Source: Escherichia coli (GTDB lineage: Bacteria > Pseudomonadota > Gammaproteobacteria > Enterobacterales > Enterobacteriaceae). From it: a stretch of 64,000 nucleotides of DNA. Location of the stretch: assembly GCF_024700885.2 (NCBI RefSeq), contig NZ_CP117016.1; one strand, 5' to 3'. Shown here one piece after another: positions 9,024 through 51,566 of the stretch (position 1 is the stretch's first letter; the number at the start of each line of letters is the position of its first letter). Made by a program: the position numbers and the translations under genes. The notes under the pieces were generated by a model. It made no database searches. It was not told where the DNA came from and worked only from the letters and a program-made list of their open reading frames with translations.

Positions 9024-11455
9024 TCCAGCCCCATCGCCCGCAAATGCTCGGCCACTTTCTCGCTCAACGCCTCAACGGAGGCTTCAAGCGCTAGCAACGG
9101 TTCAGCATAACGCTCTTCCAGCTCCTTTACGCGCGACGCCAGTTGCTGGGTAATACGCTCAATCTCCGCCTTGATCCCTGCCTGCAACGTTGCCAGCCAC
9201 TTATCCTGCACTACCAGCGTTTTAATCGCTGCTTCATCCAGCGTGGGATAATGTTTAAACACCGCCCGATCCAGCGCTTCTTGTGCGGCTTTCAGCGCTT
9301 TTTTCGCACTGGCTTCGGCCTTAATTAGCGCCAGGCAGCGGTTCAGCACTGCCAGCTCATCTGGGCCGGCAGTGGTTTTCTTTAACTGTGCTAGACGGGC
9401 ATTCACCAGCTTTTGCGTCACCTTATCTTTATCGTTCTTCGCCTCGGCCAGCAGATCCTCTTCACCTGCCTGCTCCTCGATGAATTCCACTAGCTGACGA
9501 CTGGCTTCTTCACTGCGCTCCTGCGCGCGGTTCAGCGCATCCAGCAGTTCCGGGAAACAGCGAATTTCCACCAGCGAACGGGGCAGCACATCGGCCTTGT
9601 AGCGCCGTTTGGTAAACTCGAAATCGTGCGTTTCTTTCCAGATGTTTTTGCCATCTTTGCCTTTCACCGGCTGAAGCTCGCGGATTTGCGCGGCGGCTTG
9701 CCAGCCATCCTGCATAATCGCATACACATCGTCTTGCATGACATCAGTCCAGTAATCCATCAGGATCTGGTACACGCTGTATTTGTTCAGCAACTCACTG
9801 TTGGCGTACTGCGCCAATAGCATTTCGCTGATATCGTGGATTAGCGCTTTGGGTTTATCACCTTTGCGAATCTCTTCCAGACTTGCCTCTTTCACCCACG
9901 CTTTAAACGGTAGCAGGCTGCGGGTGGCAAAATCCTTAAACTCCTGATGCGCCAGAATGGTCGGTTTCACCTGTTGCGCGTTCACCTGCGCCCGACAGTA
10001 ACCGGGACGGTCGTCAGCAAACAGCACGTTGCGCAGGGCAGGGAATACCCGCCAGTAATCTTGCAAAGCATCCACATCGCGTGCCGGAATACCGCCCTGT
10101 AAGTGCGCGGTCAGATCGTGTAAATCTTCCGGCTCGCCGCTCTCGATATAGCGAGGAATATTCAGGTTGTAATCATTTCCGGCGATCTCGCTGGAGGGCA
10201 CCATCCGGCTGTAGCCAGGTACCGTTCGCTGATGGTTGAACACGTCCACAATGCGGTGAATATCTCGGCTACGCAGGCGGTTCTTGTTGCCATCTTTGAT
10301 AAAGCCCCGGCTGGCGTCGATCATAAAAATGCCTTTGCGGCTGTGGGCGTGCTCTTTATCAATCACAATGATGCACGCCGGGATGCCGGTGCCGTAAAAC
10401 AGGTTGGCTGGCAAACCAATAACGCCTTTGATATAGCCCTGCTTGATTAGATTTTCACGGATATTCGCTTCGGCGTTACCGCGAAACAGTACGCCGTGGG
10501 GCAGGATCACCGCGCCTTTGCCGGTACTTTTCAGGCTTTTAATGATATGCAACAAAAAAGCATAATCGCCGTTTTTTTCCGGCGGAATACCCCAGCCGAA
10601 GCGTTCAAACGGATCTTTTTTCGGCGTCAGCCCGTTGGTCCAGTTTTTATTGGAAAAAGGCGGGTTCGCCACGGCAAAATCGAAGGCTTTCAGTTTGCCG
10701 TTCGCCTCTTTCCACTGCGGATCGCTCAGCGTATTGCCCTGCCAGATTTTCGCGGTGGCATTGTTATGCAGAATCATGTTCATCCGCGCCAGCGCACTGG
10801 TAGCGTTATCCATCTCCTGGCCGAAAATCGACAGTCCGCGCCGGGCTTCATCATTCACTTTCAACAGCAGCGAACCAGAGCCACAGGTTGGGTCATAAAC
10901 CGTTGCATCTTGCGGAGTATCGGGAGTAATACCAATCACCTTCGCCAGAATACGTGACACCTCCGCTGGAGTGTAAAACTGCCCTTTACTCTTACCGGAT
11001 TCGGTTGCGAAGTGACGCATCAGATATTCATAGGCATCGCCCAGCAGATCGTCGCCTTCGGCCCGGTTGCTGGAGAGATTTAACCCTTCAAAGATACCGA
11101 CAAGCTTGCTCAGGCGGTCAATCATTTCCTTGCCTTTGCCGAGCTTATCTTCGTCGTTAAAGTCGGCTTCGTCGATGACGCCCTTCAGGCCGTTCTCTTC
11201 CGCCAGCTTGTGGATGATTTTGTTGATTTTGTCGCCGATCTCTTTGTCATTTTTCAGCGCAACCATATCGTCAAAGCTGGCTCCTTTGGGTATCACGATC
11301 ATCCCGTAAGGATCGCCTTTATACTTATCGGAAACGTACTTCATAAACAGCAGGGTCAGTACATAGTCTTTGTACTGGCTGGCGTCCATCCCGCCACGCA
11401 GTTCGTCGCAGCTTGCCCACAGGGAAGAATAGAGTTCGGTTTTTTTGATAGCCAT
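9017..11455 (-). CDS. hsdM: Type I restriction-modification methyltransferase subunit (HsdM), long form with ~300-aa C-terminal coiled-coil extension
   Basis: 812 aa; HsdM N-terminal domain (MAIKKTELYSSLWASCDELRG...), AdoMet motif I DPTCGSGSLL and N6-adenine motif IV NPPF; C-terminal third is Ala/Glu/Lys/Leu-rich and predicted helical. Confidence 0.85.
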   Translation of the reverse strand: MAIKKTELYSSLWASCDELRGGMDASQYKDYVLTLLFMKYVSDKYKGDPYGMIVIPKGASFDDMVALKNDKEIGDKINKIIHKLAEENGLKGVIDEADFNDEDKLGKGKEMIDRLSKLVGIFEGLNLSSNRAEGDDLLGDAYEYLMRHFATESGKSKGQFYTPAEVSRILAKVIGITPDTPQDATVYDPTCGSGSLLLKVNDEARRGLSIFGQEMDNATSALARMNMILHNNATAKIWQGNTLSDPQWKEANGKLKAFDFAVANPPFSNKNWTNGLTPKKDPFERFGWGIPPEKNGDYAFLLHIIKSLKSTGKGAVILPHGVLFRGNAEANIRENLIKQGYIKGVIGLPANLFYGTGIPACIIVIDKEHAHSRKGIFMIDASRGFIKDGNKNRLRSRDIHRIVDVFNHQRTVPGYSRMVPSSEIAGNDYNLNIPRYIESGEPEDLHDLTAHLQGGIPARDVDALQDYWRVFPALRNVLFADDRPGYCRAQVNAQQVKPTILAHQEFKDFATRSLLPFKAWVKEASLEEIRKGDKPKALIHDISEMLLAQYANSELLNKYSVYQILMDYWTDVMQDDVYAIMQDGWQAAAQIRELQPVKGKDGKNIWKETHDFEFTKRRYKADVLPRSLVEIRCFPELLDALNRAQERSEEASRQLVEFIEEQAGEEDLLAEAKNDKDKVTQKLVNARLAQLKKTTAGPDELAVLNRCLALIKAEASAKKALKAAQEALDRAVFKHYPTLDEAAIKTLVVQDKWLATLQAGIKAEIERITQQLASRVKELEERYAEPLLALEASVEALSEKVAEHLRAMGLEW

Positions 11456-11494
11456 TAAATATCTCGTTTTGCGCGATAATGTGCCGTAAGTCGG

Positions 11495-11800
11495 TTACAG
11501 CAGATCGGTATTCAGACCGGCGGCCTTTAACCGATGGGTTAAGTTACGCATTTTGCTGAATTCGGTACCGAGGCTCTGGTTCAGACCAGTGCCTTCGCAA
11601 AAGGCTTTTGCCGTAATGTGTTCCAGTTTGTCGGCATATTTAATCATTTGCAGGTGCAGCTCGACGGTGTACTGGTTACGAGGCGCACTGGAAAGTGCCT
11701 GCCGGATATGGCGATAAATCTCGTCTTCATTCATATTCATGGCAACCACTGGTATAATAGATAAGTTAGCTAAATTAGCTAAATGTGGTATCAGGTTCAA
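11495..11800 (-). CDS. Hypothetical small protein at the head of the hsd/darTG operon (80-101 aa)
   Basis: ORF immediately upstream of hsdM on the same strand (39-nt spacer); protein-like composition; internal Met (MNMNEDEIYRH...) is an alternative start; no family recognised. Confidence 0.4.
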   Translation of the reverse strand: MNLIPHLANLANLSIIPVVAMNMNEDEIYRHIRQALSSAPRNQYTVELHLQMIKYADKLEHITAKAFCEGTGLNQSLGTEFSKMRNLTHRLKAAGLNTDLL

Positions 11801-12015
11801 GAACTACAGTGGGAGTCGGATTTGACTGCGCGATTTATGCACGTAAATGCCTTGTGGCGGATTAATGGCCGCAGTATCTTCTCCTTCCGCGCCTGCAAAA
11901 TCAGGCGTCGGGATTAGCTTCCTGAAAACCGTTACAGGAGACTTCTCTATGACTACAATCCTTGTCCCTGACTGCGATTTACTCGATCTATTGTTCGTTT
12001 CCTTATAATGTCACT

Positions 12016-12270
12016 ATGGATTTCACCGCCTTGGTCGACAACTGCGCCCACTTCGTCGAATCCCTGATAGAAACCGAGGATCCCGCGCTGTGGCTTACCC
12101 TCTGCGGGCGACATTGTACTGCTGCAACCCACGCCGACCTCATCCCGCCGCATTTTACCGAAAGCCTGCTCAGTGATACTCTCCCCACCATGCCAGATCA
12201 GGTTATTTCTGAACCTGATTCTTGTGCGAATATTGCCTCGTGCGGGCTGTGCATCATCGCCGCTCTTTGA
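12016..12270 (+). CDS. Hypothetical small Cys-containing ORF (84 aa)
   Basis: ATG at 12016 preceded by TATAAT at 12004-12009; product MDFTALVDNCAHFVESL...PDSCANIASCGLCIIAAL; no family recognised; coding status uncertain. Confidence 0.25.
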   Translation: MDFTALVDNCAHFVESLIETEDPALWLTLCGRHCTAATHADLIPPHFTESLLSDTLPTMPDQVISEPDSCANIASCGLCIIAAL

Positions 12271-12732
12271 TAAGAGGCGTCAAAGGTAAGGGGCGTAGCG
12301 TTATTAGTTTGGGCTATACACTTGCGCTACAACTCTTCAAATAGCTATATATCAACAATATTTAGCCATAAACCGTCTACTTCCGTCTCAATTATACTCA
12401 AATTAAGGCATGCGGCATCTTTGTGACACATTTGTTTTTTTGATACAGGTTAGAGTTGACCTGCTCTCCGTTGATTAACTCACATTGTTGTTAACCACGT
12501 CTACTTTTAGCACGACACTGATGCGTTAACTGAGCGAATGGTCTGCTTTGAGCGAGGAACGGACATTACTAACAGCATTCTGTGTGAATCACCAGGGAGC
12601 AGGTCAGCGCCACTACTCTATATAATCGCTAACGATGACAAGTATAATTATATAAGTCTTTGCCCTTAGCTTTTGGATAAAATTGTTGAAGTTTCACGAA
12701 AATAATGATAAACAAAAACAGTAGCAATAATT

Positions 12733-13677
12733 ATGGATTTAATTATGGAATGGAGATTTTTAGGTTCTCTATCAGAGGCCAGGAAATCTGGCTGTAGCGG
12801 AGTTTATCTTATTGTCCATAAAGGACTTTTCAGTCGTGTGGTTTACGTTGGGGTAAGTTGTAATGTAGGTAGAAGGATAACCGAACATTACGACGGTTAT
12901 CTTAGAGGAAATCGAACAATTTACGACGCTGGTCACGACGAAGACGTTTATCGCTTCATGTCAGCTTATAAAATTCATAACCACACAAAATACTATCAAG
13001 CCTTGGCGAATGATTATAAGATATGGGCATCTACCACAATGTATTCTGATTTGCCGAAAAACATGCTAGCAAAAAGCCAAACCTTTGATACTGATTGGCA
13101 GAGCATTGCATTAGAAAAATATATTCCTCAACTGGTAGTATGGGCCCTTCCAATGGCAAAGTACTGTTATTCAAATGCAAGCAGGATTGAAAGTGTAATC
13201 CAATCAAAGCTCATTAAATCTTTTGATTTGAGAGGTTTTTTTAATATAAAGCAATTAAGCATATTGGGTAAAATTGAATATCCCTATATGGAAAAGGTCA
13301 AAGTTTTCATTATTAACACACCTGATTTAGACCCGGCATCCCAGCTTATTTTTAGCAATCTATATAACAAAAAAACTGATAACAACTTCTGTAAAGAGTT
13401 CCGTTCACAATTTAAAAGCGAGATTTTTCAGAGGGAAAGTGAAACTCAGAGAAAGCGAACTATCAGGGAGCATAAGGTATCTCTTTATGAAAATTATGGC
13501 AAGCCTTGGACTTTAAAGGAAATGGAAAAACTTAGAGTCATGCTTGTCGATTTTGATTTGTCCCCGATAGAAATATCTGAGTATCTAGGAAGAGAGCCGC
13601 GCTCTATATCTAAAAAAATAAGCGAAAATGATAAAGTTACTAATTATAAATGGCGAGAGAGCGTCGGCTGGTTGTGA
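12733..13677 (+). CDS. Hypothetical protein with GIY-YIG-like nuclease N-terminus and HTH-like C-terminus, in an AT-rich segment
   Basis: 314 aa; N-terminus GVYLIVHKGLFSRVVYVGVSCNVGRRITEH resembles the GIY...YIG...R...H core of GIY-YIG nucleases such as I-TevI; C-terminal ...WTLKEMEKLRVMLVDFDLSPIEISEYLGREPRSISKKI resembles a helix-turn-helix; flanked by ~400 bp of AT-rich non-coding DNA. Confidence 0.55.
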   Translation: MDLIMEWRFLGSLSEARKSGCSGVYLIVHKGLFSRVVYVGVSCNVGRRITEHYDGYLRGNRTIYDAGHDEDVYRFMSAYKIHNHTKYYQALANDYKIWASTTMYSDLPKNMLAKSQTFDTDWQSIALEKYIPQLVVWALPMAKYCYSNASRIESVIQSKLIKSFDLRGFFNIKQLSILGKIEYPYMEKVKVFIINTPDLDPASQLIFSNLYNKKTDNNFCKEFRSQFKSEIFQRESETQRKRTIREHKVSLYENYGKPWTLKEMEKLRVMLVDFDLSPIEISEYLGREPRSISKKISENDKVTNYKWRESVGWL

Positions 13678-14879: not shown

Positions 14880-14925
14880 AAAACGATCGATAAAACAGGT
14901 ATCGATCGTTACCATCGATCGTTTA
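14880..14925 (+). promoter_or_regulatory. agn43 (flu) phase-variation switch: three closely spaced GATC Dam sites in the OxyR operator
   Basis: GATC at 14885-14888, 14904-14907 and 14917-14920, ~210 bp upstream of the Ag43 start, matching the known Dam/OxyR switch architecture. Confidence 0.75.
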
Positions 14926-15137
14926 TAGTGGTTAATGGTCTGCGAAAAGGCAGCTGAATCTCTTCATCATGCAGAACGGAATTGCACACAACGGACTGAT
15001 ACTTCTCTGGCGGATGAGAGAGGGGAAGCATTTATGTCCGGGAAAAACCACTTTATCTGACCATGCTGTTTTGTACCTGCCGGTATCCACATTTGTGGGT
15101 ACCGGCTTTTTTATTCACCCTCTGTAAGGAAAAGCTG

Positions 15138-26467: not shown

Positions 26468-26555
26468 TGGCGGTGAGGGGGGGATTCGAACCCCCGATAC
26501 GTTGCCGTATACACACTTTCCAGGCGTGCTCCTTCAGCCACTCGGACACCTCACC
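26468..26555 (-). tRNA. serX: tRNA-Ser (anticodon GGA), serX-like
   Basis: Reverse complement reads GGTGAGGTGTCCGAGTGGCTGAAGGAGCACGCCTGGAAAGTGTG...GGGGGTTCGAATCCCCCCCTCACCGCCA: long variable arm, T-loop GGTTCGAATCC, CCA end, GGA anticodon. Confidence 0.95.
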
Positions 26556-32099: not shown

Positions 32100-32853
32100 G
32101 ATGAAACCCCGCTTTTTTTATTGATCGCACACCTGACAGCTGCCTCTAAAATAGAAGCACCAGAAGTACTGACAGATGTTGCACTGCTGTGTGTAGTAAT
32201 AAATCAGCCCTAAATGGGTAAAATATAAAACTAATGGATTACATCTGATTTCAATCTAGCCATTACAAATCTTAAATCAAGTGTTAAACATGTAACTAAA
32301 TGTAACTCGTTATATTAAAATGTTAATCTTAAGGTTTTATTAAGTTTAGAAATGATAGAAAAGTTGTACATTTGGTTTTTATTGCACAATTTTAAAAAAT
32401 CATACAAATGGTGCTAACTTACTAATAATGCATATAAAAAATATTTCGGTGTAGTCCTTTCGTCATGTAAAACGTTCTTGTTTTTTCTTCACACCTCCGT
32501 GGACAATTTTTTACTGCAAAAAGACGAGGTTTGTCACGGCTTGTGCGCAAGACATATCGCAGCAATCAGCGACGGGCAAGAAGAATGGCTGTCTGGTGAT
32601 TTTTGATTGCGGAAAACGGAGATTTAAAAGAAAACAAAATATTTTTTTGCGTAGATAACAGCGTATTTACGTGGGTTTTAATACTTTGGTATGAACAAAA
32701 AAAGAAAAATACAACGCGCGGGTGAGTTATTAAAAATATTTCCGCAGACATACTTTCCATCGTAACGCAGCGTTAACAAAATACAGGTTGCGTTAACAAC
32801 CAAGTTGAAATGATTTAATTTCTTAAATGTACGACCAGGTCCAGGGTGACAAC
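32100..32853. promoter_or_regulatory. csgD-csgB divergent intergenic regulatory region (754 bp, AT-rich)
   Basis: 754-bp non-coding AT-rich segment between divergent csgD and csgB starts, matching the known curli control region; individual binding sites not mapped here. Confidence 0.7.
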
Positions 32854-42322: not shown

Positions 42323-42416
42323 GCCTGATGAGCTACGCTTATCAGGCCTACATCGCTCCTGCAATATGTTGATTTTGCAAGATTTTGTAGGTCGGATAAG
42401 GCGTTCACGCCACATC
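42323..42416. repeat. REP/BIME element (two inverted REP copies)
   Basis: GCCTGATGAGCTACGCTTATCAGGCCTACA and GTAGGTCGGATAAGGCGTTCACGCCACATC, classic REP consensus in opposite orientations. Confidence 0.8.
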
Positions 42417-51515: not shown

Positions 51516-51566
51516 TAATCTCTATGCTCCGGCTGAAGGGATGTTTTTGCCGGACACAAAGGATAA

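Follow-up and report, generated by a model that had tools for sequence, protein, structure and literature searches.

The immI region of bacteriophage P1 has the architecture a1b1–c4–a2b2/RBS–icd-ant and is represented in Rfam by the families RF01695 and RF03163. The c4 antisense RNA of P1 and P7 reportedly controls icd-ant by way of its a1/b1 and a2/b2 targets. In the isrK–orf45–anrP module of Gifsy-1 (Salmonella), the short IsrK RNA acts in trans to open an inactive long transcript and activates downstream translation (Hershko-Shalev et al. 2016, PMC4825925).

Here we analyse an 84-codon open reading frame (ORF) in a 64-kb stretch of Escherichia coli DNA, hereafter the window. We conclude, with a probability of about 0.9, that this ORF is a relic without function, derived from the middle part of a decayed gene, orf156. 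Intact copies of this gene usually lie at the integrase-proximal end of enterobacterial islands associated with tRNA genes, downstream of isrK and C4 RNA genes. On this view, ordinary gene decay accounts for the ORF, which does not represent a novel small protein.

Results

The ORF and its surroundings

The ORF spans positions 12016–12270 of the plus strand, comprising 84 codons from an ATG followed by TGA. Its translation, MDFTALVDNC...SEPDSCANIASCGLCIIAAL, has the C-terminal end ...PDSCANIASCGLCIIAAL given in the preliminary description. In strains with 100% identity, the RefSeq/PGAP annotation has a hypothetical protein, WP_154670580.1, with precisely the bounds of this ORF. The 84-residue product matches no Pfam, NCBIfam or PHROG model, and neither it nor a 53-residue ORF of the window matches the Ash family PF10554. 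Spurious ORFs of at least 84 codons are common in the window, examples being one of 153 residues antisense to hsdM and one of 402 residues antisense to Ag43.

The placement of the ORF between a restriction–modification (RM) operon and a GIY-YIG-like ORF is borne out. To its left lies an HTH_73–hsdM–hsdS–darT–darG–hsdR operon on the minus strand, with its edge at 11495; to its right, a GIY-YIG-like ORF of 314 residues begins at 12733. The small HTH_73 gene (11495–11734) heads the type I RM operon, and darT and darG (5950–7670, minus strand), which encode a DNA ADP-ribosyltransferase toxin and a glycohydrolase antitoxin, lie between hsdS and hsdR. Of the promoter-like sites in this region, the best, TTCATA-17-TGgTATAAT, falls within 11730–11785 on the plus strand, in the divergent region upstream of the HTH_73–hsdM operon, and is directly followed by two copies of the 9-nt unit TTAGCTAAA, of which strain E2348/69 has three. 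If a TTG start giving a 101-residue product were used, these copies would be read as an in-frame LAN repeat. The 314-residue ORF (12733–13677, plus strand) is annotated as hypothetical; its GIY-YIG match is marginal (E = 0.017, residues 22–62) and below the Pfam threshold. The AT-rich 460-nt gap in front of it (12271–12732) is a mosaic of segments that are distributed differently among E. coli genomes.

Also upstream of the ORF is the TATAAT to which the preliminary description drew attention. It is present at 12004–12009 on the plus strand, separated from the ATG by 6 nt (gtcact). The site is not reported in the promoter scan, which found no acceptable −35 element for it, and it has no extended −10 TG. 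There is no Shine–Dalgarno sequence in the 12 nt (TATAATGTCACT) 5′ of the ATG, and the ORF at 12016 lacks the promoter and the ribosome-binding site of its own that an independent small gene would have. The window contains 19 copies of TATAAT, where 24.9 ± 5 are expected. Neither the frequency of the hexamer nor the length of the ORF is beyond chance here, and neither is the mark of a gene. The hexamer is absent at this position from all intact homologues of the locus. Weak Rfam matches in or near the ORF (Moco-II, speF and mir-553; E values of 0.9–6) were dismissed as chance.

The parent family

A distant-mode BLAST search with positions 11740–12300 as query against 5426 complete E. coli genomes gave matches in 1142. 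The ORF is annotated in a band of about 70 records at ≥99% identity, whereas the rows sampled from a band of about 230 records at 90–99% have no gene annotation. At around 80% identity there are more than 500 records; here the match is interrupted by an extra stretch of about 190 nt, and the sampled rows carry an "ash family protein" and a 156-residue hypothetical protein. Representatives of the bands were fetched and aligned base by base with the window. Three loci (L002, L006 and L007) are intact. The decayed ones include an allele of the FDAARGOS_1289 type, which is the closest sister of the window copy, and those of E2348/69 and ETEC4073.

We use orf156 as a working name for the conserved 153–156-residue gene of the intact loci, whose products resemble WP_000201175; members of the family include WP_000201175.1, WP_000201180.1 and WP_061092890.1. 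The family comprises 608 proteins at E ≤ 1e-3, almost all of 153–157 residues, from Escherichia, Salmonella, Klebsiella, Enterobacter, Citrobacter, Dickeya, Pectobacterium and Brenneria. Conservation is strong over the full length, with 17 invariant columns among the 43 members compared, several of them in the C-terminal half. The intact protein has no Pfam, NCBIfam or PHROG model. Its AlphaFold model is confident (pLDDT 85.8, pTM 0.80) and predicts, for residues 8–155, a bundle of four helices, together with a short helix at the N-terminus and a β-hairpin at the C-terminus. A profile search of the PDB for clues to function gave no match, and other PDB searches returned generic helical bundles only. 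In 50,697 phage records, the protein is absent save for one unannotated 1.5-kb fragment.

The window is homologous to the orf156 locus over positions 11870–12243, with about 81% DNA identity. In tblastn searches with intact proteins (P0001 and P0005), residues 1–17 align in frame +3 at 11949–11999 with 80–82% identity (E = 2e-5 for residues 1–15), and residues 16–96 of P0001 align in frame +1 at 11995–12222 with 58% identity (E = 8e-27); the latter is the frame of the 84-codon ORF. The residues LCEYCL follow in the third frame, inside an ORF at 12222–12344 that begins (L/M)CEYCLV. They form the last stretch homologous to orf156 (12222–12243, plus strand), which ends at about codon 102 of 156. 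Residues 103–156 have no tblastn match anywhere in 11701–12800.

Lesions in the window copy

A single frame of about 153–156 codons from the conserved ATG is no longer present in the window; the copy has two frameshifts, two deletions and a stop after 19 codons. The lesions are described here in the orientation of the gene, the plus strand. Its original ATG and 19 codons survive as an N-terminal stub at 11949–12008 (MTTILVPDCDLLDLLFVSL, then a stop), ended by a frameshift. This frameshift is a +1 insertion at 12005/12006, where intact loci read CCCTT-CAATGCC or CCCTT-TAACGCC and the window reads TCCTTATAATGTC. According to the alignment, the 1-nt insertion together with one substitution gave rise to the TATAAT, which contains the TAA (12006–12008) that ends the stub. 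The "start codon" of the ORF (12016–12018) arose by a change of ACG to ATG at Thr23, a residue that is nearly invariant in the 43 family members.

The 84-codon ORF then runs through parent residues 23–96 with internal damage. An 11-nt deletion after 12112, also found in E2348/69 and ETEC4073, causes loss of the frame, which is regained through a 4-nt deletion after 12134 that is absent from these two strains. The 22 nt between the deletions (12113–12134) are read out of the parental frame, as HCTAATHA in place of LHAALALLQPTLH. Finally, one nucleotide has been lost from a T run at 12219–12220, where the window has TGA-TTCTTG, the FDAARGOS_1289-type allele TGATTTCTTG and intact loci AGATTCCTTG. 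The last 16 residues of the ORF, SCANIASCGLCIIAAL up to the stop, are a −1 out-of-frame reading of parental ...SLCEYCLALLQLL... (...SLCEYCLALL...). The TATAAT, the ATG and the Cys-containing tail were produced by these lesions, and all three features of the preliminary description are therefore by-products of pseudogenisation.

Homology to orf156 ends at 12243. The last 53 or so codons have been lost, and the 3′ third of the gene is replaced by unrelated DNA (12244–12450) that is common to all decayed alleles and carries no annotated gene; to the right of about 12450–12570, the cargo of the alleles diverges. The C-terminal half of the protein (LTGLLCELVW...PRW.RTADG), which in the model forms helices 4 and 5 and the β-hairpin, is missing from the window, and with it have gone the invariant residues L124, L128, P139, W141 and T144.

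The lesions are distributed incongruently over the decayed alleles. In the 4-nt deletion and the ATG the window agrees with the FDAARGOS_1289-type allele, but in the −1 slip of the T run it agrees with E2348/69 and ETEC4073. This pattern implies either homoplasy in the homopolymer or recombination among the alleles.

Sister alleles and selection

Start, frame and C-terminus of the ORF are not conserved across homologous loci. Intact loci have an internal Thr codon at the position of the ATG and read through the region as part of the 156-residue gene. E2348/69 and ETEC4073 have ATA for ATG and several in-frame stops, the first two being TAG codons early in the frame, and an inserted A destroys their parental ATG. 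The FDAARGOS_1289-type allele lacks the −1 slip, reads ...SEPDFLCEYCLVRAV... and yields a different product of 107 residues (protein variants P0123 and P0131). PGAP calls no gene at this site in any of these three alleles. The exact 84-residue sequence is found on at least 1000 contigs, its 90% cluster being confined to E. coli, and the 107-residue variant on 294.

Substitution rates were compared in the parental frame by the Nei–Gojobori method. Between intact copies dN/dS is 0.16 (23 synonymous and 13 non-synonymous changes), and between intact copies and the window copy it is 0.45–0.53. Among decayed alleles it is 1.2–4.4, values that come from only 7–19 changes, mostly non-synonymous, but that are consistent in direction. 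The window copy thus bears no sign of purifying selection.

The suggestion of the preliminary description that the ORF may be a small protein does not survive these comparisons: its ATG, TATAAT and Cys tail arose from decay mutations, and its frame is unconserved. The other suggestion, of non-coding DNA left open by accident, comes close: the frame is indeed open by chance, but what is open is the remnant of a pseudogene.

A precursor of a Cys-containing peptide of the RiPP or bacteriocin kind was also considered and rejected, the tail being the product of a lineage-specific −1 frameshift that is missing from the nearest allele. No RiPP modification or export genes lie beside the ORF, the neighbours being RM/DarTG, the GIY-YIG-like ORF, a GTPase gene and Ag43.

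The isrK–C4 module in intact loci

The three intact loci have a common order: cargo (type I RM, Abi/AAA or Rhs), isrK, C4, orf153/156, HTH_35, EFASI RNA, an Integrase_1-family gene, a P4-type tyrosine integrase gene, and tRNA-Phe or tRNA-Thr. The start of HTH_35, a winged-helix gene, overlaps the orf156 stop. Their isrK matches score 59–68 bits and their C4 matches 70–85 bits; in the four decayed loci, isrK is below threshold and C4 is absent. The integrase-proximal module extends over 4018–8233 in L006, 4003–8374 in L007 and 3018–4166 in L002, and the EFASI RNA scores 96–99 bits. A literature search on EFASI returned nothing relevant to mechanism.

In L002, Rfam places isrK at 3018–3095 (68 bits; gathering score 50) and C4 at 3117–3205 (71.8 bits; gathering score 45), ahead of the orf156 ATG at 3257. 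Two boxes, GATTAGCCTC and AAACCGTTACAGG(C/A)GAC, occur here in two copies each, one set inside isrK and the other just 5′ of the gene, where the second box contains the Shine–Dalgarno sequence AGGAG. Each box has its complementary segment in C4 (AGGCTAACCCCG and GTTTCCTGTAACG). The copies of AAACCGTTACAGG(C/A)GAC, at 3055–3071 and 3235–3251, are 180 nt apart and stand on either side of the isrK terminator and the C4 gene. By analogy with the phage systems, we infer that C4 represses translation of orf156 and HTH_35 and that isrK counteracts it.

Modules closely related to these isrK–C4 pairs were found in 175 phage records, including Stx phages. The riboregulator is common to phage antirepressor loci and islands, and orf156 is essentially absent from phages.

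In two of the intact loci, the C4 gene coincides with CDSs annotated as "ash family protein" (PF10554, E = 5.5e-7; L002 3117–3279, L007 4103–4265; C4 scores of 72–85 bits). We regard such an ash CDS as probably a translated RNA gene and not a protein. Some database entries of 193–215 residues with PF10554 fuse the ash stretch to orf156. The segment concerned is absent from the window.

Remains of the module in the window

A single hybrid set of boxes is left in the window at 11909–11942, and there is no C4 gene. This, together with the 180-nt distance between the repeats in L002, is what would be expected if the two repeats had recombined and 180 nt had been deleted, including the isrK terminator and the C4 gene. 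The junction (11926–11942, plus strand) is one hybrid copy of AAACCGTTACAGG(C/A)GAC and includes the parental Shine–Dalgarno sequence AGGAGA at 11936–11941. A box complementary to C4 is thus still present over the downstream ribosome-binding site; CGTTACAGGAGAC, at 11930–11942, is identical to the L002 box that pairs with a C4 loop.

Upstream, a putative isrK-type promoter (TTGTGG, 17 nt, TATCTT) lies at 11852–11880 on the plus strand, with a predicted transcription start at about 11887–11889, where the isrK-like match begins. L002 has this TTGnnn-17-TATCTT arrangement ahead of its full isrK match, and homology to L002 begins at window position 11870. Two hairpins of the isrK or c4-a1b1 type follow at 11889–11924 (plus strand), with the loops GCAAAAUC and UUAGCU; both are part of the predicted minimum free energy fold, from which the isrK terminator hairpin is missing. 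The isrK match (11889–11950) scores 42.3 bits, below the gathering score of 50, and the c4-a1b1 match (11876–11928) 40.9 bits, below 46.7; in E2348/69 and ETEC4073, isrK scores 34 bits. The terminator segment has collapsed from 22 to 7 nt, and the window thus has neither a gathering-level isrK match nor the isrK terminator. No C4 match was found in 11700–12500 at E ≤ 10, or at the gathering score in the whole 64-kb window, and 11400–12800 holds no terminator-like site.

Elsewhere in the window, Rfam matches at the gathering level are an IS102 RNA (72 bits; 14883–15119, plus strand), which lies in the leader upstream of the Ag43/Cah autotransporter gene, and ES056 (32155–32246), ES036/CssrF (42344–42386) and a PyrC leader (51516–51565).

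Island context

The relic lies within a composite island that ends at tRNA-Ser(GGA) (26468–26555), beside a 2-hydroxyacid dehydrogenase gene. On its left is the type I RM operon with the embedded darTG; on its right are CP4-44-like genes for a YeeP-type GTPase, Ag43, IrmA, DUF932, an antirestriction protein, CbtA, DUF5983 and DUF4942. orf156 marks the integrase-proximal end of intact elements. The RM/DarTG segment is most simply read as former cargo of such an island, whose integrase end would have been deleted or overwritten when the CP4-44-like segment joined it.

Discussion

An intact module would work as follows. From a promoter, the isrK small RNA, a C4-type antisense RNA and orf156 with its overlapping HTH_35 gene would be expressed in this order. 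The loops of C4 are predicted to pair with a box in isrK and with a box over the orf156 ribosome-binding site, so that C4 would block translation of orf156 and isrK would relieve the block, as suggested by P1 immI c4–icd-ant and Gifsy-1 isrK–orf45–anrP. In the lineage of the window, recombination between the boxes may have deleted 180 nt, with loss of the isrK terminator and C4; the gene lost its last 53 or so codons and all its downstream partners; and the +1 insertion, the 11-nt and 4-nt deletions, the −1 slip and many amino-acid changes followed. By accident, these lesions left 84 codons open from the Thr-to-Met codon.

Some observations speak against a relic. In E. coli, the two most frequent allele groups both have the frame open, and the 4-nt deletion brings back the reading frame that the 11-nt deletion had destroyed. 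A good Shine–Dalgarno sequence is still present for the stub (AGGAGA, 7 nt from its ATG) and would be unrepressed now that C4 is deleted. The stop of the 19-codon stub is only 7 nt from the ATG of the ORF, so that ribosomes could terminate, reinitiate and translate the fragment if it is transcribed. The product might then act as a truncated small protein, for instance as a dominant-negative or decoy for the orf156 proteins of other islands. We consider this extremely unlikely, as E2348/69 and ETEC4073 have no start codon and several in-frame stops, the C-terminus differs between the window and its closest sister, dN/dS among the alleles is at least 1.2, and invariant family residues are altered (L74 to F and A50 to T, for example). 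Judged from the predicted fold, the 84-residue product would be without helices 4 and 5, which belong to the four long helices of the bundle, and without the C-terminal hairpin; helix 3 would be partly scrambled and out of frame, and the end derives from a frameshift. Such a product would not be expected to fold or function. The chance of an independent small gene with its own σ70 promoter is next to nil. Here the TATAAT would drive a leaderless mRNA whose first nucleotide is the A of the ATG; a perfect −10 hexamer ending 6 nt before the ATG does have the right spacing, but the promoter reading is rejected in view of the missing −35 element and extended −10 TG, the silence of the promoter scan, the chance-level frequency of the hexamer, and its origin in a frameshifting insertion that intact homologues lack.

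The locus might instead retain a role as RNA, its isrK-like hairpins being transcribed and acting as a sponge for the C4 RNAs of co-resident phages or islands, with the ORF as an untranslated 3′ tail. The promoter-like TTGTGG-17-TATCTT is conserved with intact loci, both hairpins are predicted to fold and to retain the boxes with which C4 loops pair, related isrK–C4 modules are present in the phage records mentioned above, and Gifsy-1 isrK activates downstream genes in trans (PMC4825925). Such a role nevertheless seems unlikely on the sequence at hand: the Rfam scores are under the gathering thresholds and lower still in sister alleles, the terminator of the short RNA is deleted with no terminator-like site to replace it nearby, and the window contains no C4 gene. 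More speculatively, a constitutive transcript of isrK hairpins, C4 boxes and an open ribosome-binding site could sponge the C4 RNAs of Stx, P22-like or P1-like phages or of islands and shift their antirepressor switches, or the 19-residue stub and the 84-residue fragment, made by termination–reinitiation, could interfere with an intact orf156 elsewhere in the genome; we hold either to be very unlikely.

With the ORF taken as a relic of orf156, the RefSeq "hypothetical protein" WP_154670580.1, carried by at least 1000 contigs of E. coli, should be re-annotated as a fragment of a pseudogene. The intact orf156 and HTH_35 genes are a widespread and unstudied pair under an isrK–C4 riboregulator, beside the integrases of tRNA-linked islands, and the isrK–C4–orf156–HTH_35 module is a candidate switch for island induction or excision. 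Apart from this intact module, only the "Ash protein" annotation that coincides with the C4 gene is worth carrying forward.

The locus may finally be set beside its relatives. Compared with the orf156 family, the window copy shares the upstream ribosome-binding site and the N-terminus, with 80% identity over residues 1–15 and 58% over residues 16–96, but it is split into three frames, has a net 15-nt deletion and lacks residues 103–156. Unlike the intact loci, it has no C4 RNA upstream and no HTH_35, EFASI, integrase or tRNA partners downstream. The P4-type "Ash family protein" is annotated in related loci directly 5′ of orf156, a segment that the window lacks.

Among the described systems, the Gifsy-1 isrK–orf45–anrP module has the same layout as the intact relatives: isrK with its terminator, a conserved RNA-like stretch (orf45/STnc1160 there, C4 here) and a translationally controlled gene. 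The regulated gene is the AnrP antirepressor in Gifsy-1, whereas here it would be orf156 with HTH_35, for which sequence complementarity suggests such control. The window keeps the two isrK hairpins of this layout, but it is without the terminator and the C4 part, and its cargo gene is dead. Like P1/P7 immI, the intact relatives have two target sets around C4, the second of which overlaps the ribosome-binding site of the first downstream ORF. They differ from immI in their cargo and in belonging to genomic islands and not to a phage; the window differs further in having one fused target set and no C4.
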